From Dehalococcoidia bacterium (GTDB lineage: Bacteria > Chloroflexota > Dehalococcoidia > Bin125): DNA of 64,000 bases. Positions 10,056-22,071 of this stretch are shown one piece after another. Each line of letters starts with the position of its first letter. The stretch's first letter is position 1. The stretch lies in the NCBI GenBank assembly GCA_965215555.1, contig OZ244071.1, positions 1,038,471 to 1,102,470 of the forward strand, given 5' to 3'. The notes beneath the pieces are model-generated. The model had not been told where the DNA came from. It saw only the letters and a list, made by a program, of their open reading frames with translations, and did no database searches. Position numbers and translations under genes: made by a program.

Positions 10056-10700
10056 ATGACCGACCAACCCACTGACGCCCCCTTTGAAGATGCCCACTTC
10101 CAACGTGTCGACGAGTCCGCCGACACCAACTTCTACGCCCAGCCGAGACTCGTTGCCCACATCGATGACGCGGCGATCGGTGCGCTGCGCGAACATTACT
10201 CCAAGTTCCTACCGAGGCAGGGCCGCCTGCTCGACCTGATGTCGTCGTGGATTTCGCACTACCCCGACGACCTCGAGTCCCAGCGCGTCGCCGGACTGGG
10301 CATGAACGCCGAAGAGTTGGCCGAGAACCCTCAGCTCACCGAGTGGGTCGTTCATGACCTCAACGCTGATCCCATCCTGCCCTACGGCGACGGCGAATTC
10401 GATGTCGTCACTGTCGCCGTCTCTGTCCAATACCTGAAGCAGCCGCTCGATGTCTTCCGGGAGATCGGCCGTGTCCTGCGTCCCGGCGGAGGCTGCATCG
10501 TCTCCTTCTCAAACCGTTGCTTCCCAACCAAAGCCGTCAGTCTCTGGCAAGGAATGGGAGATGAAGGCCACGTGCAGCTCGTCGGGGCCTACTTCCACTA
10601 CTCGGAAGCCTTCGACCCACCCCAGTGGCACGACATCTCCCCCGCCAAGGGCCAAAGCGATCCAATGTACGTCGTCCAGTCGAGGACACCTCAGGCCTGA
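10056..10700 (+). CDS. Class I SAM-dependent methyltransferase (Methyltransf_11-like)
   Basis: VLRPGGGCIVSF motif, and the acidic motif DVVTVAVSVQYL. Confidence 0.7.
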   Translation: MTDQPTDAPFEDAHFQRVDESADTNFYAQPRLVAHIDDAAIGALREHYSKFLPRQGRLLDLMSSWISHYPDDLESQRVAGLGMNAEELAENPQLTEWVVHDLNADPILPYGDGEFDVVTVAVSVQYLKQPLDVFREIGRVLRPGGGCIVSFSNRCFPTKAVSLWQGMGDEGHVQLVGAYFHYSEAFDPPQWHDISPAKGQSDPMYVVQSRTPQA

Positions 10701-10916
10701 TCGCCAGATAGAAGTTGCGACGGCACGTTTGTCAATCTCTAGATCGCGCAGGATGGCAGCGATCGTTCCCGATTTGAGATCGCTGCTGCCCCAGTTGGGA
10801 ATCGTCGCCCGCTTCTGCGTTGCGGGGTTTCGCCAAGTCTCGTGCGAACCTCGTCCCTGCTCGTCAAAATAGCAACCGAGTGCCCGCAGCTTCTTCGTCA
10901 CTTGCCTGTAGTTCAA
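10509..10916 (-). CDS. hicA: HicA-family toxin (mRNA interferase) with an unusual ~70-aa C-terminal extension
   Basis: TTG start; MNYRQVTKKLRALGCYFDEQGRGSHETWRNPATQKRATIPNWGSSDLKSGTIAAILRDLEI is a canonical HicA domain. The ORF continues antisense into the 3' end of the methyltransferase gene. Confidence 0.6.
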   Translation of the reverse strand: MNYRQVTKKLRALGCYFDEQGRGSHETWRNPATQKRATIPNWGSSDLKSGTIAAILRDLEIDKRAVATSIWRSGLRCPRLDDVHWIALALGGGDVVPLGWVEGFRVVEVGPDELHVAFISHSLPETDGFGWEATV

Positions 10917-11120
10917 GCCGACACCAGCAACTCGCCTACCTGAACGATTTCAGGAGGCAGAGGGTCGCCATGCTTGATGTGGGAGGCGATGAACGCCTCG
11001 GCGACACCCTCCCAAAATCCAGAGCGCTTCCTCCGGCGTATCGGCCCATGCGCAACATCCCGGAAGACTGGGCAATTCGGCCAGGAACATCTCCCCGGTG
11101 TCCTCGCACGGTTCCCGCAT
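10913..11120 (-). pseudogene. hicB: hicB antitoxin, frameshifted
   Basis: Frame c gives MREPCEDTGEMFLAELPSLPGCCAWADTPEEALW (HicB/UPF0150 hallmark). Around 11010-11025 it continues in frame a as EGVAEAFIASHIKHGDPLPPEIVQVGELLVSA*. The stop overlaps the hicA TTG start (TTGA). Confidence 0.5.
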
Positions 11121-11303
11121 CGTATAGGCCAGTCGGTATTGCTTGGTAATCCGGACCCTCCTGGACCGATTCTACCAACTTCCCAACCACTTGCCGCAGG
11201 CGCGAATCCTTGGCTCGGCGCCGTGAGCTCTGAAGTGCGTTGTCCAATCGACGACGCATCATTCGCAGAGTTACGATAGATCGCACACTTGACACGCAAG
11301 ACG

Positions 11304-14150
11304 TTACCGACAGAACGACTCTTCGTCGGCAGGCAACCGGAACTCGATGCCCGACACATCCTTGTTGGAGATCGTGATACCTGTCGCACTCTCCCACACC
11401 TTCGTCGGACCTGACCTACGGTAGCGAATGCGACAATCACCGAACTCGGTCCCCACCGACAATCGATACGTACCATTAGTAGTCACCGACATCGAGAACG
11501 ACCCATCTGCACCCGACTCGCCCCCTCCAGAGCCGCTATTGCCTTCAGCGTGGACCCATTCACCAGCGCGCGGGCTTCCATCGGCATTCAGCAACTTGCC
11601 CAGAATGCGGTTTACGCACATGCCCTCGTCAAGTTGCATTCTCAAGCCCGTCAAGTCTACATCCGACACACGCACAAGAGTCGCACTAGCCCACTTACCC
11701 GTAACGCCGTTGTTGCGGTAGTAGACATGGCACCCATCAATCCTGGCAGTTACTCGATATCGACCTGCTTCCGGAGCGGTTATCACAAACGCACCAGAAG
11801 CATCGGTCTGGGTTGAGCTATGAACATTGCCGTTCCCGATCCAAACACTGGTGTTCGTGATGGGAGCGCCGTCGGCTTCCAGCAACGTACCGGCGATCTT
11901 GGTCGAGCACTGTCCAGGGGAAAGCTTAAACACGACCCTCGTGACATCGTCATCGACGGCGAGCCTGGCAGCCTGCTTCTGGATTGGCGTTGTGCTGCCG
12001 CGACGATAGTACGTCCAGCATCCGTTGATCTGGGCTTGGATGAAGTACCGTCCTGAATCCGCGATGGAGATATCGAATGCGCCATCTGCATCAGTATGGT
12101 CTCCAGGTCCCCAGCTAGATTCTGTGCGCACGTTTACCCAGACGTCTGACATCGGCTGTCCGTCGGCATCCAACAGCCTCCCTGAGATGCCCGCCGAGCA
12201 CGCTGTCTCCGATATCACGAAATCGATTCCATCAACGTCCGAATCGGCAATGACGATGTCAGTTGCGTTGTCCCGACTTCCACTCGTCGCCGATTCGTTG
12301 TAGTAGTAGCCGCATTCGTCGATGTACACGCGCATGAGATACACACCCGATACTGGCACAGTGATGGAAAACGTTCCGTCGCTACCGATACGCGCGTTGC
12401 CATTTGCGTAACCGGTATCTACGTTGATCTGTTGGTTGGCTGGCAGCACGTTTCCACGGTCAACCACACGTCCGTTGATCCGCCAGACGCAAGTCTCGTC
12501 TGTTAGTGCCAAGGAGACTCTCTCGACACCTTCCGCTGACGGCGAGAGCAATTCAGCATCTTCCCACTTGTACACGGCCCCGTTGGAGGTGTAATAGACC
12601 GCACACCCACCAAGATCCACACCCCACTGCACTCCGCCGGTCCCTGGCGCTGCCAGCTCGAATTCCCCGTTGCCATCAGTGGACGTCTCGAAGTAGCTGT
12701 GGCCGCCTTCCCCAAGGAGATGCTCGGTCCTCGCCACTATCTTGACATACGGCAACCCTGCGCCTTCGGGTCCGACGACTCGTCCTCGGGCCAAGACCGG
12801 CGCCAACTCTGAGCGCCAAGCTGCAAATTCGCTGTAGAAGTCGTCAACGGAAATCCCAAAGACATCATGAAACGCCGCCTGCCACGGAGGATTGGTTTGC
12901 CAACGACCAAGCGGGCCTAGCGGCTCCGCCAAGAGTGCACGCCAGAAGTCGAGCAGTGATGATAGGCCGCTGCGTATCGCGAGCTGATGCGAAGCGACCG
13001 TGCCAAGGGTGTACTCCCAGCCGTGACTCTCTGGCCTAATTTCAAGGACCTTCAACGGCGGTATATCCTCAGATGCAATATGTTGACGATCTTCCGCCAG
13101 TTCGTTCTTCGCTGTTTTGGTATCGCGGAGCACGAATCTAGCTCTCACCCACTGAGCGTCGCCTTCCACCAGCCAAATGGCGGCGTCTGAGCTGCCCATC
13201 TGGAGCTGTATTGTGTGGTAATACTCATGAGCCAAAATGCGGCGGCCATAGGTATATCCACCATATGCGTCACCTCTGTTATTCCTATGGTCAGATCTCC
13301 ATTGTTCCGCCTTCTGCACAACGTAGCTTTCGTCCGCCCAACCCTCAGAACGGTACCAAGTACGGTGGATACCGTCGGTGTTATGTCCATCCTTCTCCAT
13401 TGCCTCTACCAGTAAGTCAGGATCTGTAGCGATGTACAGGGAGAGCATGGATCCGTCTGGCTGAACACCAAACTCTTCAGCGAACCAATTCATGATGTCA
13501 ATGGAATCCTGGCCGACAGTCGCCTTGATATCCGCCGCAATTTCTCCTGCAAACACGACTGTCGGCATCACCCCAGCGGGCTGGAGCCAGTTGACAGTGC
13601 GTGAGACTTCAACCCAGATTGCGGCGCCTCGCTTCAAAGCCGGCAGAGACTTTGCGGTCGTGGTTTCTGCCGGTGTGTACTCACCACCCTCCCATTCTGC
13701 TCTGACCAACGCGCGACCGATGCCCAGGGCAACACGGTCAATGGCCCAATCGTCAGGTCCCAACCACGTTACGAGATTGCGCCCTCGATGGAGCGTGACT
13801 TTGCCCTTGACCGGCATCATTGGACGGCGCCATTGCACAGCCTCGGTACCGGCCAGCGTGACGATGTATCCCTGACCCGCCAATAGGCTGGCTGGCTCGT
13901 AGAACTGGCCAGTTAACGGCTCCCATGCCGAAACCGATTCAATCGCAGGGAGTCGCTGCTTTACCTGCGCAATCGGCAACGGCTCGCCGAGCCAACCGAC
14001 GAGGTTTTCGCCTGGCTGCAGAGTGACGACGCCCGGATCAACAGGCCCAGTCGTCTCAGTCGTCTCATCCGCCAACAGTGGACCGAGCCCCGCCGCCAAG
14101 CAGGCGACGAGGCCGAGGATTAGCCCAATCAGCAGCCGAGGCAGGCGCAT
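11304..14150 (-). CDS. Large secreted putative zinc metallopeptidase (HExxH...E, peptidase-MA-like) with five C-terminal Cys-bracketed ~95-aa beta-sandwich-type repeats
   Basis: Signal peptide MRLPRLLIGLILGLVACLAAG; duplicated ~65-aa N-terminal module (VTLQPGENLVGWLG / VTLHRGRNLVTWLG); AHEYYHTIQ...LVEGDAQW; repeats C..G.LLDADGQP...TDADGAF...GRY...C.YYR. Lower GC than neighbours. Confidence 0.7.
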   Translation of the reverse strand: MRLPRLLIGLILGLVACLAAGLGPLLADETTETTGPVDPGVVTLQPGENLVGWLGEPLPIAQVKQRLPAIESVSAWEPLTGQFYEPASLLAGQGYIVTLAGTEAVQWRRPMMPVKGKVTLHRGRNLVTWLGPDDWAIDRVALGIGRALVRAEWEGGEYTPAETTTAKSLPALKRGAAIWVEVSRTVNWLQPAGVMPTVVFAGEIAADIKATVGQDSIDIMNWFAEEFGVQPDGSMLSLYIATDPDLLVEAMEKDGHNTDGIHRTWYRSEGWADESYVVQKAEQWRSDHRNNRGDAYGGYTYGRRILAHEYYHTIQLQMGSSDAAIWLVEGDAQWVRARFVLRDTKTAKNELAEDRQHIASEDIPPLKVLEIRPESHGWEYTLGTVASHQLAIRSGLSSLLDFWRALLAEPLGPLGRWQTNPPWQAAFHDVFGISVDDFYSEFAAWRSELAPVLARGRVVGPEGAGLPYVKIVARTEHLLGEGGHSYFETSTDGNGEFELAAPGTGGVQWGVDLGGCAVYYTSNGAVYKWEDAELLSPSAEGVERVSLALTDETCVWRINGRVVDRGNVLPANQQINVDTGYANGNARIGSDGTFSITVPVSGVYLMRVYIDECGYYYNESATSGSRDNATDIVIADSDVDGIDFVISETACSAGISGRLLDADGQPMSDVWVNVRTESSWGPGDHTDADGAFDISIADSGRYFIQAQINGCWTYYRRGSTTPIQKQAARLAVDDDVTRVVFKLSPGQCSTKIAGTLLEADGAPITNTSVWIGNGNVHSSTQTDASGAFVITAPEAGRYRVTARIDGCHVYYRNNGVTGKWASATLVRVSDVDLTGLRMQLDEGMCVNRILGKLLNADGSPRAGEWVHAEGNSGSGGGESGADGSFSMSVTTNGTYRLSVGTEFGDCRIRYRRSGPTKVWESATGITISNKDVSGIEFRLPADEESFCR

Positions 14151-14153
14151 CGT

Positions 14154-15095
14154 CTAGCGGAACTCGGGGATGACCGTCTCTGCGAACATCTGGGCTGGTT
14201 CGATGGTGTCTCGGCCGAAGAATTCGATCATGAACATGTCGCAGCCGAGCTCGACGTGCTTTTCGATTCTCTCTTTGATCATCGACGGCGTGCCCGTGAG
14301 GGCCATGTCGCCGGCCGGGTTGCCCATGTGACCACCGAAGATCTTCTGGGCTCGTTCGACCATCGGACCGACCTTGGCGTCGTCCTCGACGATTGTGACC
14401 AGACACTGTTGCGAGACGCGCAGTTCGGACGGGTCGCGACCCAGTGCCTTGGCGTGGCCGTGCAGGACCGAGACTTTGTGCTCGAGGTCGTCCTGGGCGC
14501 CGGCCGAGTTGTTCCAGATGTCGGCGTACTGCGCGGCGATGCGCATCGTCACTTTCTCGCCGCCGCCGCCAACGAGGATCGGCATGTCGCGCGGCGGCTT
14601 GGGCTGCGTGACGAGGTTCTCGGTGTGGAAGAACTCGCCCTCGAAGGAGAACTCGTCCTGATCGGCGTCAAACATGCCCTTGAAGATTTGCAGGCCCTCT
14701 TCGAGCTGGCGCAGTCGGTCGCGGGTGCTGACGAAGGGCATGCCGAAGTCGGTGAACTCGCGGGGCATCCAACCGGAGCCGAAGCCAGGGATCACGCGCC
14801 CGCCGGCGATGTTGTCGACGGTGGCGATCATCTTGCCGGTGTGGGCCGGGTTGCGCATACCGACAGGCGTCACCAGCGTGCCGATTTCGGGCTTCTCGGT
14901 CGCTGCGGCGATGCCGGCTGCCAGGGTCCACGCCTCGAGCATCGGAATCGCAGGCGACTGCGGACCGTAAAGATGGTCGTTGACCCAGAGCGAGTCGAAA
15001 CCCATCTCCTCAAAGGCCAGGGACGCGCGCCGAGTCTCTTGCCAGGTGCGCTTGATCTGCGGAACCATCACGCCAAAGTGAGGGCTGTTGGTCAT
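14154..15095 (-). CDS. LLM-class F420-dependent oxidoreductase (luciferase-like monooxygenase family)
   Basis: 313 aa; TIM-barrel LLM blocks (FDSLWVNDHL, GFGSGW). AGAGGA RBS. Stop TAG is 1 nt before the ATG of 11304-14150. Confidence 0.75.
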   Translation of the reverse strand: MTNSPHFGVMVPQIKRTWQETRRASLAFEEMGFDSLWVNDHLYGPQSPAIPMLEAWTLAAGIAAATEKPEIGTLVTPVGMRNPAHTGKMIATVDNIAGGRVIPGFGSGWMPREFTDFGMPFVSTRDRLRQLEEGLQIFKGMFDADQDEFSFEGEFFHTENLVTQPKPPRDMPILVGGGGEKVTMRIAAQYADIWNNSAGAQDDLEHKVSVLHGHAKALGRDPSELRVSQQCLVTIVEDDAKVGPMVERAQKIFGGHMGNPAGDMALTGTPSMIKERIEKHVELGCDMFMIEFFGRDTIEPAQMFAETVIPEFR

Positions 15096-15157: not shown

Positions 15158-17530
15158 CTACTCACACAGATTTTCGTAGACCCACTCAATCCCGGTCACA
15201 TCGGCACCTGCGATCGTGATCTTGTCACTAGTGCTGGGAGCCAATGTCGAGTCTCCAGCCTGACGCCGAAAGACATTGCAACCATCTTGCCACGCATACA
15301 ACCAATACTCTCCATTTGTAGGAACAAGAAACCCAAAATGGCCATCCGAATCTGTCATCATAGAATCTAGGCTCTCACTACCACCACTCACAGCAACCAA
15401 TACCTGTCCTCTGGGATTGCCTCCACGATCTAGTACCCTACCTTGCAGCCGCCATGCGCACAAGTCTTTCGGTATACTCACCTGAAGCCCTATCAGCTCT
15501 ACTCCAAGGGGAAACCATCTGCTATCACTTTGAGACACGATCAGTCCATGGTCACCAACCCAAGCATAACATCCAGCACCTCCACCGGCTGCGTCGCCAA
15601 GGTCCACTCTCACTTGGTAGCGACTGCCAGCCGTCGCCCAATGTGTAAAGGGTTGTCCGCAACTCTGTTGCACTCCATGACCATTTCCGCTTTCGGCTAC
15701 CAGAAGTACAGCAAAATACTCGTTGCAATAGTCGGATGCCTCGTCTCGCACTACGGTGACTGTTAATCCCCCCATGCAGGCACCGTGTGGGAGTTCCAGA
15801 TTCAGTCGAGTCGGCTTCGCCACACTCACGTAACGAACTTCGTTTGCACTAGGAATGTCAGTCCTTAGGCCATCGCGGGAGAGATATAACCTGCAAGCGT
15901 CCCCCCGTGCTACCTGTATCCTTTGGCTTATGTTGGGCGGCACACGCAGCATAAACGAACCGTCATCTTCAACTCGTGCACTGTAGACAATTGATCCTTC
16001 CACCCACTTACCATTCTTGTAGTGGAGAGCCTCAACGACAAAATCTGTCGCAGGAAGGTCACTGTCATAGGTCAGGCGGCCAAGCAACACCGCTTTGTCC
16101 CACTCTTCAGGAAGTGGGTTTCGCCATGTTCTATGCCACTTTTCGAACTCGCTATAGAAGTTGGTCAACGTCAGGCCGAAAACACTAGCAAAGGTGTCTT
16201 GCTGAGGAATCCTGTACGCTGGGAGATCATCCGCTCCCAGACTCTGCGGATAGCTTTGTCGGAAGTACTCGACAATTGAATCGAAACTACTGAGTTCCAC
16301 TAGTCGATCGACGGCTAGAAGGCCGAGAGAATATTCATAGTTCTTGTTCCTTTGCCAGTCGACCATCGGCAATGTAACATGAGGGCTCCTGGCAGCATCA
16401 AGCGGGAAACTTCGGCTCGCCTGAAATGAGATGCTGCCGTCAGCAACGGCCAGCCCATACCCACTCCACTCTGCTGAGCCTTCAATCATCCAAAATGGAC
16501 GAGCAGAGTCGTTGTAACTCAATTGGAATTGTAGCGTGTGAAACAATTCATGGGCAAAGACAGGCACATTGAGAGAGTCGTCAAGTTGACCACCACACCA
16601 TGACGAGCCATCGCAGATGGACATTGTTACGCCTCCGCCCCCACCGAGGATGGGATTGTTTATGAGGCTGCGGCGGAGCGTGTCCCGATTAGAATAATAT
16701 TGGAAGTTTGAAACGTAGTACTCTACTGCCGCGTTTAGGTCATTCCACAACGTAAGTCTTGTGTTTGCGAAGTCGGTCTCGACCCCGTAAGTGGAGGCAA
16801 AATAGTCAATGACGCGGAGGATGTCGCTCGATATTCTCTCCTTCAGCGGCAAGGAAAAGTCCCCAATCCACACCACCTCCGGCATCATCCCAGTCGGCTG
16901 CAGCCAGCGTAGGTCCCTATTGACCGTGACCCGCAGCGCGTCGCCCCGACGCAGGGTGGACTGCCCGCTTAGCGGCTCGATCGCCACGGAGATGTTGTCG
17001 TTGGGCTGATAGACGATGCCGCGTTCCTCGACCTCGATGCTGACCAGTGACGTGCCGATCCCGCGCGCGACCTGGTCAAGCGGCCATTCGTCGCGACCGT
17101 TCCACGCGACCCAATTGACACCCGAATAGAGCGTCACCATTCCCTTGGCCGGCGTCAGTGAGCGCTCCCACTTGACCGTTTTGCGGCCCTCAATGCGAAT
17201 CCTCGCGGACATACCCGGGTCGAGCCGCTCGAGCGTGCCACCGACGTCGCGGATGGCGTGGCGATACGTTCGCGAGTCCGCATTCCAGGTGTAGATCAGC
17301 GTCGCGGCAGAGATCTGCTCGAAGATGTCAGCAACCGCGATCGGCTCGGCGACCCAGCCGACGAAGTTGTCGCCGGGATGCAATTCCAGGGTCTCGGTCG
17401 GTGCGTCAGCAGCACGAGCGTCGGAAGGGAAGAGACCCAATGCCAGCAGAACAGCGGCCGTGGCCAGCAGTCCAATCAGCAGCTTCGGCCTACTGACGAG
17501 CCGAAGTCGGGAGGGGAACGGAAGGGGCAT
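15158..17530 (-). CDS. Paralogous secreted putative zinc metallopeptidase (HExxH...E) with C-terminal Cys-bracketed repeats
   Basis: Start at MPLPFPSRLRLVSRPKLLIGLLATAAVLLALG (17530, AGGA RBS). Same N-terminal module (LELHPGDNFVGWV / VTLYSGVNWVAWNG), AHELFHTLQ...MIEGSAEW, and three C-terminal repeats ending in C..F.R. Distinctly AT-richer. Confidence 0.7.
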   Translation of the reverse strand: MPLPFPSRLRLVSRPKLLIGLLATAAVLLALGLFPSDARAADAPTETLELHPGDNFVGWVAEPIAVADIFEQISAATLIYTWNADSRTYRHAIRDVGGTLERLDPGMSARIRIEGRKTVKWERSLTPAKGMVTLYSGVNWVAWNGRDEWPLDQVARGIGTSLVSIEVEERGIVYQPNDNISVAIEPLSGQSTLRRGDALRVTVNRDLRWLQPTGMMPEVVWIGDFSLPLKERISSDILRVIDYFASTYGVETDFANTRLTLWNDLNAAVEYYVSNFQYYSNRDTLRRSLINNPILGGGGGVTMSICDGSSWCGGQLDDSLNVPVFAHELFHTLQFQLSYNDSARPFWMIEGSAEWSGYGLAVADGSISFQASRSFPLDAARSPHVTLPMVDWQRNKNYEYSLGLLAVDRLVELSSFDSIVEYFRQSYPQSLGADDLPAYRIPQQDTFASVFGLTLTNFYSEFEKWHRTWRNPLPEEWDKAVLLGRLTYDSDLPATDFVVEALHYKNGKWVEGSIVYSARVEDDGSFMLRVPPNISQRIQVARGDACRLYLSRDGLRTDIPSANEVRYVSVAKPTRLNLELPHGACMGGLTVTVVRDEASDYCNEYFAVLLVAESGNGHGVQQSCGQPFTHWATAGSRYQVRVDLGDAAGGGAGCYAWVGDHGLIVSQSDSRWFPLGVELIGLQVSIPKDLCAWRLQGRVLDRGGNPRGQVLVAVSGGSESLDSMMTDSDGHFGFLVPTNGEYWLYAWQDGCNVFRRQAGDSTLAPSTSDKITIAGADVTGIEWVYENLCE

Positions 17531-17601
17531 CGAACATCCTGTCGGTCTAACTAACGCGGGCAGGCTAGACCGACAGAACACGCCTACTTGACAGAACGAC
17601 C

Positions 17602-17862
17602 TTAGTCAGCGGCCTCAACACTCGTCTCGGCCCGACGCGCCGCCTCAGCATCCGCCTTCTCCAACGCCGCTTGTTTGATGAAGCGGCCAAGCGGTATCTC
17701 CCGCCTGGAGCTCCTCGCCTTCAGCCGAGCCATCTCTTCGCGACTGAACGTGATTTCCATTCCAAATCGACCAGGTCCCTGATCGGCCGGATCGTAAGGA
17801 ATCTCCTCTGCCTCAAGTATTGGCGGGCTCATCACATGGACTGGTCGCTCGGACTCGGTCAT
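17602..17862 (-). CDS. BrnA-like ribbon-helix-helix antitoxin
   Basis: ...MEITFSREEMARLKARSS...RFIKQAALEKA; start overlaps the upstream toxin stop. Confidence 0.55.
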   Translation of the reverse strand: MTESERPVHVMSPPILEAEEIPYDPADQGPGRFGMEITFSREEMARLKARSSRREIPLGRFIKQAALEKADAEAARRAETSVEAAD

Positions 17863-18215
17863 CAGGTTCGCATCCTTCCACCGGGTTGATTGTATCGCGT
17901 TTGATCAGTGCGGTTTGCCTGCCACCCAGTGACCACTCTCGATTCACCATATCCGTCTGGCAAGGCAAGGATGAACGTCAAGAGACGCCCTCCAAAATCA
18001 GGACCAATCATCACAACTCGAGCCGGCTGCTTCCACGGCAGACCGAATTCATCAACCTCTTGCCGCTCGCGCTGCTCGAAGTATTTTGCCTGCCCTAACC
18101 ACACTTCCACGGCGTCAGAAAAATCTAGTCGATGACGCCAGAGATGCTCATCTAAGCGGTCGCTGCCGTTCAGCCCATGCTCAGGAATCTGAACCATGTC
18201 GAGGAACTTACCCAA
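17862..18215 (-). CDS. BrnT-like (DUF497) ribonuclease toxin
   Basis: ...DEHLWRHRLDFSDAVEV..GQAKYF...GRLLTFIL...VVTGW...TRYNQPGGRMR. Start may be the internal MVQIPEHG. Confidence 0.55.
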   Translation of the reverse strand: MGKFLDMVQIPEHGLNGSDRLDEHLWRHRLDFSDAVEVWLGQAKYFEQRERQEVDEFGLPWKQPARVVMIGPDFGGRLLTFILALPDGYGESRVVTGWQANRTDQTRYNQPGGRMRT

Positions 18216-18275: not shown

Positions 18276-18539
18276 TCAGTCGGCAGCTTCCACAGACTGA
18301 TCGGCTTGTTGATCGGCGTGCTGCCTCGCCTGGGCCTCTGCCTTCTCCAACGCCGCCTGCTTGATGAAGCGAATCAGTGGACCGCGAGGATGTCTCGTCT
18401 TGAGTCGGTTGATCTCGTCCCGATCGAACTCGATCTCAAGACGCATGACCCCAGGACCCTTCTTGGCTGGGTCATAGGGAATCTCTTCCAGATCGTCGAT
18501 TGGCGTATCAATGTGGACCGGAGATCGTCGTGTGGTCAT
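18276..18539 (-). CDS. BrnA-like RHH antitoxin (second copy)
   Basis: MTTRRSPVHIDTPIDDLEEIPYDPAKKGPGVMRLEIEFDRDEINRLK...RFIKQAALEKAEA. Start chosen at 18539, overlapping the toxin stop. Confidence 0.55.
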   Translation of the reverse strand: MTTRRSPVHIDTPIDDLEEIPYDPAKKGPGVMRLEIEFDRDEINRLKTRHPRGPLIRFIKQAALEKAEAQARQHADQQADQSVEAAD

Positions 18540-18874
18540 CGAATTCGCATCCTTGTTCCTGGCTGATGGTAGCGAGTTTGCTCGCCGGGAGTCGATATCC
18601 ACCCGGTGACGACATGGGACAGTTGGTCGTGACTTGGCACTTCGAGAATGAAGGTCAGAAGACGGCCACGAAGATCCGGGCCAACCATTTTGACTCGTTC
18701 AGGTTGTACACCCTCGTTTCCCAACTCGTCGAATCGAGGTCTGGAAGGTTGAGGAAAGTACTTGGCCGGACCAGTCCAGACGTCATTGGCATCGTCAAGC
18801 GTCAGGCCGTGCGACCGCAAATGCTCATCACTGACACCATTGCCAGTGACGCCGCGATATGGGATTTCAGGCAA
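18536..18874 (-). CDS. BrnT-like toxin (second copy)
   Basis: MPEIPYRGVTGNGVSDEHLRSHGLTLDDANDVWTGPAKYF...GRLLTFILEV...VVTGW...TRYHQPG. Confidence 0.55.
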   Translation of the reverse strand: MPEIPYRGVTGNGVSDEHLRSHGLTLDDANDVWTGPAKYFPQPSRPRFDELGNEGVQPERVKMVGPDLRGRLLTFILEVPSHDQLSHVVTGWISTPGEQTRYHQPGTRMRIR

Positions 18875-18948: not shown

Positions 18949-20277
<1,329 letters not shown>

Positions 20278-20334
20278 CAGGGATCCTCCGTGGCTGTACG
20301 TGGCCGAACCTTGGCGTCGGTTCACGTCTCTCAG

Positions 20335-20421
20335 CGGCTTGGTCTAGCCGTTATGCCTGTGGTTGGGTGCTCGCTTACTTTGACCTGTCATGGCCTCTTG
20401 GTCTAGCCGAACGGTCTAGTC
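20335..20421. repeat. Direct repeats cttggtctagccg (x2) plus partial ggtctagtcg in the aceB-aceA intergenic region
   Basis: Seen directly at 20338-20350 and 20397-20409; partial third at 20411-20421. Confidence 0.4.
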
Positions 20422-22071
20422 GAGGTATTCGTAAGCGGGCAACGTAAGGAACTCAGGGAACTCCTCGGTCAGTACGAGTTGATCGAGAATCTCGACCGCG
20501 TCGCCAAAGCGGGATGCTTCCGAACCGCCCAGCGAGGCCAGTTCCTCGTCGCGCAGCGTTTCGTACAGGTCCGACGTGATCGAGCGGCCGTCGTCGAGCT
20601 CGGCATTGTGTTGAATCCACTGCCAGAGCTGTCCACGGGAGATCTCCGCCGTCGCTGCGTCTTCCATGAGGTTGTTTATTGCAGCCGCGCCGACTCCATT
20701 GAGCCAGCTATTGATGTACTGCAACGCCACAGAGATGTTCAGTCTCAATCCGGCTTCCGAAACCGAACCGCCGGACTGATCGAGCGAAACGAGGTCGCTG
20801 GCGGCAACGCTCACGTCCTCGCGCATCCGCTCGCGTTGGTTGCGGGCGCCCTTGAGATTGGTCTCAAAGATGTCGCGGGCAACGTTCACCAGGTCAGGGT
20901 GCGCGACCCAGGTGCCGTCGAAGCCGTCGGTCGACTCTCGTTCCTTGTCGGCGCGCACGCCGGTTAGAGCGATCTCGTTGATCTCAGGGTCGCGCCGCGA
21001 GGGAATGAATGCGGCCATGCCGCCCATCGCGTGTGCACCGCGCTTGTGACAGGTACGCACCAACAGCTCGGTGTAGGCACGCATGAACGGTGTCGTCATG
21101 GTCACCTGGACGCGGTCGGGCAGGGTGAAGGTCGGTTGCGATTTGAACCGCTTGACCGCCGAGAAGATGTAGTCCCAGCGACCGGCATTGAGTCCGGCGG
21201 AGTGGTTGCGCAGCTCGTAGAGGATTTCTTCCATCTCGAATGCTGCCGGCAGCGTCTCGATCAGCACCGTCGCGCGGATGCTGCCCTGGGGCACGCCAAG
21301 ATCGTCCTGGGCCTTGACGAAGGCGTCATTCCAGAGGCGCGCTTCCAGGTGTGATTCCAGTTTGGGCAGATAGAAGTAGGGGCCGGTCCCACGAGCGACG
21401 CGCTCGGCGGCGTTGTGGAACATGTACATGCCGAAATCGAACAATGAAGCGGCGACCGGTTCGCCGTCGACCAGCACGTGTTTCTCGTCCAGGTGCCAGC
21501 CGCGCGGCCGAATCAACAGCGTGGCGATCTGCTCATTGAGCGTGCGCACCGAACCGTCGGGGTTCTCGAAGGTGATTTCCCGGCGAACAGCGTCGCGGGC
21601 GTTGATCTGCCCATTGACGACATTGTCCCAGGTCGGCGACAAGGAGTCTTCGAAGTCGGCCATGAATGCATCGGCGCCCGAGTTGAGCGCGCCGATCATC
21701 ATCTTGCGGTCGACCGGGCCGGTGATCTCAGCCCAGCGCTGTTGCAGGTCTTCAGGTGTCGGAGCGACCTGCCAGGAGCCGAAGCGCACTTCCTCGGTGT
21801 CGGAGAGGAAGTCGGGCAGCGCGCCCTGGTCAAACTCGGCCTGGCGCACCATGCGGCGCTCCAGCAGTTCCTGCCGGCGGGCGTTGAACTTCCGGTGCAG
21901 ACCCGCGACAAATGCCAACGCGTCTTCGGTCAGAATCGCGTCGAAGCCGTCCTGTATGGCTCCGACGACTTCAACGCCGTCCGGAGTACTGATTTCGGTG
22001 GTCTGGGTCATCGAAGTGCTCAGTCCCTGCTCGCGGTCTCTCTGCCGCATGGTGGTGATGACAGGCTTCAC
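20416..22071 (-). CDS. aceB: Malate synthase A
   Basis: ~530-550 aa with MSA-type blocks ([36 protein letters not shown]). Start uncertain; alternative M at 22011. Confidence 0.85.

Follow-up and report, generated by a model that had tools for sequence, protein, structure and literature searches.

Gluzincin metallopeptidases (clan MA(E)) include the M1, M30 (hyicolysin and lugdulysin, PDB 7bb8), M9 (7wss and 4ar8) and M4 families. The HExxH motif and the following glutamate are spaced by x18 in M1 and by more than this in M4 and M9; in the M9 collagenases, C-terminal beta-sandwich modules target the protease to its substrate. The transthyretin-like domain of carboxypeptidase D (Pfam CarboxypepD_reg, PF13620; PDB 5aq0 and 1qmu) is already known and is a textbook accessory domain. 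CnaB-type domains, clamped by Lys-Asn/Asp isopeptide or ester bonds, build the stalks of Gram-positive pilins and TIE/MSCRAMM adhesins (PDB 6fwv, 3kpt, 2y1v, 8bdw and 10ps). Here, we describe a 948-aa protein (pA) encoded by the open reading frame (ORF) at 11304-14150, minus strand, of a 64,000-nucleotide stretch of a Dehalococcoidia bacterium (GenBank assembly GCA_965215555.1, contig OZ244071.1, positions 1,038,471 to 1,102,470; hereafter the window, in whose coordinates all positions are given). On the evidence of sequence and structural models, the most fitting reading of pA is that of a secreted gluzincin of the endopeptidase type, from a family not yet catalogued, with a transthyretin-like array as its C-terminal accessory region. 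What is new here is a 97-aa, putatively disulfide-clasped variant of the repeat unit, an uncatalogued protease domain, and a cassette-like mosaicism among the alleles.

Layout and predicted catalytic domain of pA

The order of parts proposed for pA is a signal peptide, two small beta-modules (N1 and N2), a thermolysin-type gluzincin domain, and five tandem 97-aa transthyretin-like CarboxypepD_reg sandwiches (U1 to U5). The features are as follows:

14070-14150, minus: signal peptide, residues 1-27 (hydropathy maximum at residues 6-24; family consensus ..LLAAGL..ASA, with DE after the putative cleavage site)
13815-14069, minus: N1, residues 28-112, first copy of a small beta-module (V.L.PG.NLVGW.G ... 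W.RP)
13566-13814, minus: N2, residues 113-195, second copy of the beta-module
12789-13565, minus: putative zinc-metallopeptidase domain of gluzincin fold, residues 196-454
13215-13229, minus: HExxH motif, H308-E309-Y-Y-H312, zinc-binding and catalytic as predicted from conservation
13164-13166, minus: E329 in W-L-V-E-G, predicted third zinc ligand, in the next helix (HExxH-x16-E)
12489-12788, minus: U1, residues 455-554, Cys pair C516-C554, with no preceding Cys
12198-12488, minus: U2, residues 555-651, Cys pair C613-C651
11907-12197, minus: U3, residues 652-748, Cys pair C711-C748
11616-11906, minus: U4, residues 749-845, Cys pair C807-C845; holds the best Pfam CarboxypepD_reg stretch (752-812)
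11307-11615, minus: U5, residues 846-948, Cys pair C906-C947 (spacing 41), with the conserved tail FRLP.D...FC-x

A lipoprotein, for which the LVAC lipobox at C17 was considered, was ruled out, as Cys17 is not conserved in close relatives.

In an alignment of 44 sequences, E309, H312, Q315, W326, E329 and G330 were invariant, and H308 was at least 90% conserved. The HExxH motif was present in 54/57 family sequences, and the spacing from the motif to the glutamate was 16 residues in 35/56, unlike the spacings of M1, M4 and M9. The AlphaFold model that includes the catalytic domain was of high confidence (pLDDT 90.3, pTM 0.90). The HExxH motif lies within helix 274-291 of the model and E329 within helix 298-317, and the two are consecutive helices, as in gluzincins. 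The domain has a thermolysin-like two-lobe fold, and the fold match spans both active-site helices. Structural comparison gave the following scores:

ERAP1 (M1): 15.4
puromycin-sensitive aminopeptidase (M1): 15.0
lugdulysin (M30): 14.6 (3.6 A / 209)
M61 peptidase (M61): 13.9
Grimontia collagenase (M9): 12.6 (3.9 A / 201)
thermolysin (M4): 10.4

Identity between the pA domain and the M1, M30, M9 and M4 gluzincins was 10-15%. No Pfam match at E<=10 was obtained in residues 28-455 of pA, nor in the equivalent of residues 196-455 in its paralogue (pB, below). As no M30, M9 or M4 family model of Pfam matched at E<=10, the likeness to these families is at the fold level only. A PDB profile search returned marginal matches to an M1-type peptidase around the motif region. 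An M1 aminopeptidase was ruled out, since the GxMEN exopeptidase motif occurs in 0/57 sequences and no Pfam match was found at E<=10. The only curated model that touched the catalytic motif region in both paralogues was the MXAN_6640 putative metalloprotease (NF045524; E 2.5e-4, residues 305-339). It aligned ~34 residues around HExxH and scored 20.9 and 20.8 bits against a cutoff of 140, and pA is thus not a member.

The original prediction, a model's reading of the window's sequence, had left the HExxH metalloprotease domain unmentioned; this domain, and not adhesion, is the best clue to function. As an exported gluzincin head it would cleave extracellular protein or peptide substrates. We put the probability that an uncultured bacterium of Dehalococcoidia type secretes pA as a modular zinc-metalloprotease, with zinc binding and proteolysis as predicted properties and with the disulfide-closed units proposed below, at roughly 0.7.

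Several results weigh against this reading. No known peptidase family was matched at the sequence level (none in Pfam; the best NCBIfam score was the 20.9 bits given above), so that catalysis is predicted from the motif and the fold only. Three relatives (P0041, P0042 and P0043) have LEEYFH instead of HExxH and have lost the first zinc-binding His; activity is therefore not obligatory in the family. The pairing proposed below for the cysteines of the array rests on sequence statistics and topology. There is no C-terminal anchor in pA, which weakens the view of the array as a stalk, and TM-scores to adhesin stalks were low (0.1-0.3) because the domain orientations differ.

The loss of the first His in the three relatives and the lack of sequence-level membership in any curated peptidase family would also fit an HExxH domain that is a non-catalytic scaffold, within a purely structural protein such as one associated with the envelope or S-layer; the multi-copy, tandemly clustered and hypervariable genes resemble surface-layer or antigen families. 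We consider such a pseudo-protease unlikely for pA. The metal-site residues (H308 at >=90%, with E309, H312 and E329 invariant) are kept down to ~27% identity, which argues for selection on the metal site, and both active-site helices are part of the fold match. A zinc-metalloprotease is accordingly the reading that we prefer for pA. From their sequences, P0041, P0042 and P0043 themselves may be pseudo-proteases; they keep 4-6 disulfide-type units.

The duplication predicted for the N-terminal module was borne out, with 29% identity between N1 and N2 over 79 aa (z = 5.9; 0/300 shuffles reached the score). The AlphaFold model repeats an E-E-H-E-E-E-E pattern twice across N1 and N2, and the pLDDT of N1 is above 90. 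N2 is the better conserved copy: it is 45% identical to the N2 of pB, and its residues L120, G123, W129, G131 and W188 were invariant in the 44 sequences. N1 had no Pfam match at E<=10, and the duplicated module has no catalogued counterpart. Some proteins of 1300-1400 aa (such as P0076, P0126 and P0134) contain up to seven separate stretches matching this module (query residues ~5-220), so the module forms repeats elsewhere; there is no Pfam model for it.

Repeat units and their cysteines

The five repeats previously proposed in the 948-aa protein were confirmed by Pfam, which independently found five CarboxypepD_reg stretches (E 4.5e-28). The score of pA against PF13620 was 97.9 bits (gathering cutoff 32.3), which places it in the family; pB scored 34.4 bits with one stretch. 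The five units of pA and the three of pB align in register at a pairwise identity of 10-38%. Leave-one-out hidden Markov models (HMMs), built from four units and applied to the fifth, scored 35-80 bits for each pA unit, compared with a maximum of 5.7 bits in 100 shuffles. The motifs shared by the eight units are G-R-l-l-D-a-d-G-x-P, T-D-x-D-G-x-F, G-x-Y and G-C-x-Y-Y-R. Those listed in the original prediction (xADGxP, TDxDGxF, GxY and C.YYR) were thus found, and they are canonical for the Pfam family. Its suggestion of a transthyretin-like beta-sandwich in each unit was likewise supported, by PF13620 and by AlphaFold modelling, which it had recommended, for one unit, as a check. The model of residues 455-948, computed with a 32-sequence family alignment (pLDDT 87.7), is all-beta with nine strands per unit, and the units have the seven-strand core of the prealbumin/transthyretin-like beta-sandwich.

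Each unit differs from the described domain in its length and in one region. The Pfam model has 82 positions, of which the 97-aa units of pA match only positions 2-64. As modelled, the units have an extra short strand and a 3-10 turn after the GC.YY strand, so that each would be a nine-strand transthyretin-like fold with one additional hairpin inserted at this point. The units of the pA family also keep a family-specific pair of cysteines 37-41 residues apart. A literature search on this combination of domains and on disulfides in CarboxypepD_reg domains returned nothing relevant.

The cysteines of pA are at positions 17, 516, 554, 613, 651, 711, 748, 807, 845, 906 and 947. From residue 516 onwards, the gaps are 38/59/38/60/37/59/38/61/41, alternating between 37-41 and 59-61. 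The pattern is kept across the aligned units and in most units of the relatives. The register in which it had been read was in error. The first unit had been taken to start at CAVYY, but C516 is a mid-unit Cys, homologous to those of CGYYY, CWTYY, CHVYY and CRIRY, and U1 begins at ~R455 without a 'first' Cys. The second Cys, placed ~65 residues after the first, lies 59-61 residues after the boundary Cys. Both paralogues do have a terminal Cys, as had been stated, but it is the penultimate and not the last residue (..FCR and ..LCE), and a penultimate Cys was found in almost all complete relatives.

To address the co-occurrence of the two cysteines, 327 distinct units were collected from the family proteins and from the ORFs of 80 related genome loci. 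The pair was scored on raw sequences as the GC.YY Cys plus a Cys 33-48 residues downstream. Both were present in 288/327 units, neither in 33 and one in 6, with a modal spacing of 38 (Fisher's test p = 2e-38); the pair spaced by 37-41 residues thus co-occurs, as both or neither, in 321/327 units. The number of cysteines is twice the number of units in nearly all of the relatives listed, and in relatives the first gap of the repeat region is always ~38 and the last ~41. In P0050, a two-unit relative, the gaps are 37/60/39.

As modelled, strand 6 begins with the GC.YY Cys, immediately after the tight 'DG' (E-F) turn that follows strand 5, and the partner Cys lies ~6 residues past strand 9 and 2-3 residues ahead of strand 1 of the next unit. 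Because the nine strands alternate in direction, one end of the sandwich should hold both the strand 5/6 turn and the C-terminal tail, and the opposite end the N-terminus of the unit. A pair spaced by 38 residues would then be sterically sensible, and one spaced by 60 would not. Each unit is thus probably closed by one disulfide, from the GC.YY Cys to the Cys 37-41 residues later; the strict pairing in the sequences suggests that the two are oxidised. The claim of disulfide-stapled units therefore held for the conserved pair in each unit, but not for the pairing proposed. The disulfide would tether the linker between two domains to the unit that precedes it, and the clasped array would be a stiff, protease-resistant rod.

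Under the pairing proposed earlier, the boundary Cys would be bonded to the Cys ~60 residues on, stapling strand A to strand F. The spacing of 59-61 is as regular in pA as that of 38, and in 207/327 units the GC.YY Cys is preceded, at a distance of 55-66 residues, by another Cys. The upstream Cys is, however, missing from unit 1 of every family member, and a further count found 85 units that have the GC.YY Cys and lack a Cys 55-66 residues upstream. This register would leave the first and last of the array's cysteines unpaired in pA, and the penultimate Cys unpaired in almost all proteins. A one-unit relative (P0049) has a single pair, 39 residues apart, and the modelled sandwich has the E-F turn at one end and the beginning of strand A at the other. 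We regard this pairing as very improbable.

It is also unlikely, to our reading, that the conserved cysteines are unbonded within the units, whether they stay as free thiols, bind a metal or cross-link the protein to other subunits or to the cell envelope. The boundary Cys is in an exposed linker in the model, and the penultimate Cys could in principle form an intermolecular bond. Against this, the two positions are gained and lost together, strictly pairwise; the mature part has an even Cys count in 39/41 complete proteins; the extra cysteines of relatives are also in close pairs (gaps 4-8); and pA has a signal peptide and so would leave the reducing cytoplasm. One intra-unit disulfide, with the 37-41 spacing, remains the favoured arrangement.

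A second, close Cys pair is present within the sandwich of some units (gap 4-8 in P0044-P0046; 619-641 in pB). Close pairs also occur in catalytic domains, as C323/C329 of pB and in the alternative catalytic cassette of P0003, and extra cysteines in the family always occur in twos.

The recommended inspection of the DNA for near-identical copies, which would indicate recent expansion or slippage, found none in the pA gene. The best 42-nt direct repeat was 62-71% identical, the period was 291 nt, Tandem Repeats Finder (TRF) reported no tandem array within the gene, and the maximum unit-to-unit identity within pA was 41%. Slippage or recent expansion of the pA gene was ruled out on these grounds, and its DNA repeats are old. 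Recent tandem duplication was seen in relatives, where units 3 and 4 are 87% identical in P0012 and 83% identical in P0029.

Paralogue, family and mosaic alleles

The paralogue pB has the same architecture as pA and is separated from it by a single oxidoreductase gene. The features of this part of the window are as follows:

15158-17581, minus: paralogue pB, 807 aa as listed
16538-16552, minus: HELFH motif of pB
15161-16093, minus: three units of pB (Cys pairs 563-602, 671-708 and 768-806, with the extra pair 619-641)
14154-15095: luciferase-like oxidoreductase, between pB and pA

Gene callers on sister contigs give pB as 787-789 aa, which suggests that its true start is ~18-20 codons downstream. 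The three units predicted in the paralogue were recovered by the in-register alignment, of which Pfam detects only 1/3; unit B2 (window ~15458-15775) is highly degenerate. The unit number is therefore 3 in pB and 5 in pA, and it ranges from 0 to 7 among family ORFs.

A word-indexed search identified 55 relatives, all from Chloroflexi/Dehalococcoidia metagenome-assembled genomes (MAGs) and annotated by CarboxypepD_reg alone or not at all. When residues 28-455 of pA were searched by phmmer against 1.84 billion cluster representatives, 688 matches were obtained at E<=1e-3, 352 at E<=1e-10 and 123 at E<=1e-30. Among GTDB species genomes, 103 loci were recovered; most are in MAGs of Dehalococcoidia and Tepidiformaceae, and a genome often has several. 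Of the 80 loci retained, 26 have two or more family ORFs within 8 kb. The host MAGs include members of the SB066x series, bins of which are listed among the sponge-associated Entoporibacteria (PMC7883664).

Three relatives of pA (P0003, P0011 and P0004) are encoded at the same syntenic position on different contigs (0.27-3.6 Mb) of one assembly, with differing coverages; the sample of the window is ERZ25070917. The shared gene order is isocitrate lyase, small ORFs, pB-like, luciferase-like, pA-like, methyltransferase, DinB and GFO/IDH/MocA. The amino acid identities to pA, by module, including those of P0002, are as follows:

P0003: N1/N2 97/95%; catalytic domain 50%; U1 46%; U2-U5 96-100%
P0011: N1/N2 100/100%; catalytic domain 50%; U1 61%; distal units 33-59%, in a four-unit array
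P0004: N1/N2 90/98%; catalytic domain 98%; U1 95%; distal units 39-57%, in a four-unit array
P0002: N1/N2 75/96%; catalytic domain 99%; U1 98%; U2 93%, U3-U5 56-75%

Two types of catalytic head and two types of stalk are thus found in all four combinations, in pA, P0003, P0004 and P0011. The genes flanking the locus are 88-98% identical when the window is compared with the co-occurring strains (L082, L083 and L084). Between the window and L082, the flanks are 97.6-98.1% identical, and 12492-13563 (residues ~196-553) has no blastn match. The codon-wise nucleotide identity switches between ~100% and 42-66% at pA codons ~190 and ~555, the latter being C-V-W-R-I at the U1/U2 border, the most conserved junction. 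The body of pB likewise has no match in two strains. In strains that co-occur in a single metagenome, the alleles of both paralogues at this syntenic locus are mosaics, and their breakpoints coincide with the borders of modules. The presence of all four combinations of head and stalk indicates that close alleles differ in repeat number by exchange of a whole, diverged array, and not by slippage.

A bolder proposal is that pA and pB are strain-level hypervariable cassettes, in which heads (>=2 types, ~50% identical) and four- or five-unit arrays reassort by homologous recombination at conserved junctions under selection, and that the catalytic domain founds a new gluzincin family. In this full form it is doubtful and is offered tentatively. 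If it were true, the reassortment of head and stalk would be a mark of selection, either diversifying or negative-frequency-dependent, acting on a protein exposed at the surface; among the possible agents would be phage, grazers and, in a sponge-type holobiont, host recognition.

The intergenic and toxin-antitoxin stretch at 10656-11153 is only ~68% identical between strains, and the variable zone thus reaches beyond the pA gene. A HicA-toxin ORF (10509-10916, minus) adjoins the 3' end of pA, and in the sister strains L083 and L084, a UPF0150 (HicB-like) gene is directly downstream of the pA-like gene. On the other side, the start codon of pA is 3 nt past the stop codon of the luciferase-like oxidoreductase gene (window 14150-14154). 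The pB/oxidoreductase/pA arrangement recurs in L001, L004 and L082-L084, which points to co-transcription, with no obvious functional link. The neighbours (luciferase-like oxidoreductase, methyltransferase, DinB, GFO/IDH/MocA, isocitrate lyase and malate synthase) point to no functional partner.

Just upstream of pB are two small ORFs (17862-18215 and 18536-18874, both minus) that are paralogous to each other (53% identity over 110 aa, E 4e-37). Their matches to the BrnT toxin were sub-threshold (16 and 12.6 bits, cutoff 34.5). Between them is a 108-aa ORF (18276-18602) with no Pfam match, which overlaps the ORF at 18536-18874 by 67 nt. The count of small ORFs at this position varies among strains L082-L084. 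The mutually adjacent isocitrate lyase and malate synthase genes of the glyoxylate shunt (18949-22071, minus) are upstream of the locus and form a conserved synteny anchor.

Role of the array and significance

The best multi-domain Foldseek matches to the array were a TIE protein, pilins (BcpA, RrgB and SpaC), the MpIBP extender and the SdrD B repeats, stalks of adhesins and pilins whose CnaB fold is related to that of the array. Sequence identity between the array and the CnaB-type stalks was 9-15%. No Cna_B Pfam match was found and SdrD_B scored 18.3 bits against 29.7, so that these Pfam models do not place the array among CnaB stalks. The LPXTG sorting signal, the pilin motif and the thioester domain are absent from pA, which ends in ..SFCR. 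The array is also attached to a protease and is not an adhesin tip, and its units would be clamped by the proposed disulfide in place of an isopeptide or ester bond. By tying the linker, this disulfide would play a role equivalent to that of the isopeptide clamp.

The original prediction had described a modular, possibly adhesive or substrate-binding stalk. The number of units does vary, and a modular stalk is reasonable from the likeness to adhesin and pilin stalks, but the description missed that the array is the accessory tail of a protease. By analogy with these systems, the array may be a rod or a binding platform: it could hold the catalytic head off its attachment point or offer binding surfaces for a polymeric substrate.

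There is a sizeable, though minority, chance that the array is no inert spacer and serves chiefly to bind or adhere to a carbohydrate or a host-matrix polymer, targeting the protease to its substrate or to a surface; the disulfide model allows for such a role. Exchange between strains affects the distal units U2-U5, as would be predicted if their surface set the specificity, and the C-terminal modules of the M9 collagenases serve to target the protease in this way. However, neither a ligand motif nor a conserved surface patch was identified, conservation within the units falls on the residues that define the fold, and a unit number of 0 to 7 fits a spacer as well as avidity. A recognition role would be in keeping with allelic exchange being concentrated in the distal units. 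The counts of cysteines give the family a revised rule with strong statistics, of one probable disulfide per unit, from the start of the F-strand to the linker, that can guide construct design and annotation.

On the evidence of the conserved motif and the modelled fold, proteins annotated merely as 'carboxypeptidase regulatory-like domain-containing' belong to an uncatalogued HExxH-x16-E gluzincin family. Its members are mostly from uncultured Dehalococcoidia/Chloroflexota, many of them with several copies, and may have a part in the breakdown of proteins outside the cell. The locus is also a clean natural case of recombination at module boundaries between co-occurring strains, and it makes directly testable, with existing metagenomes, hypotheses on how selection acts on the proteins that symbiont-like, uncultured populations secrete or display at the surface.

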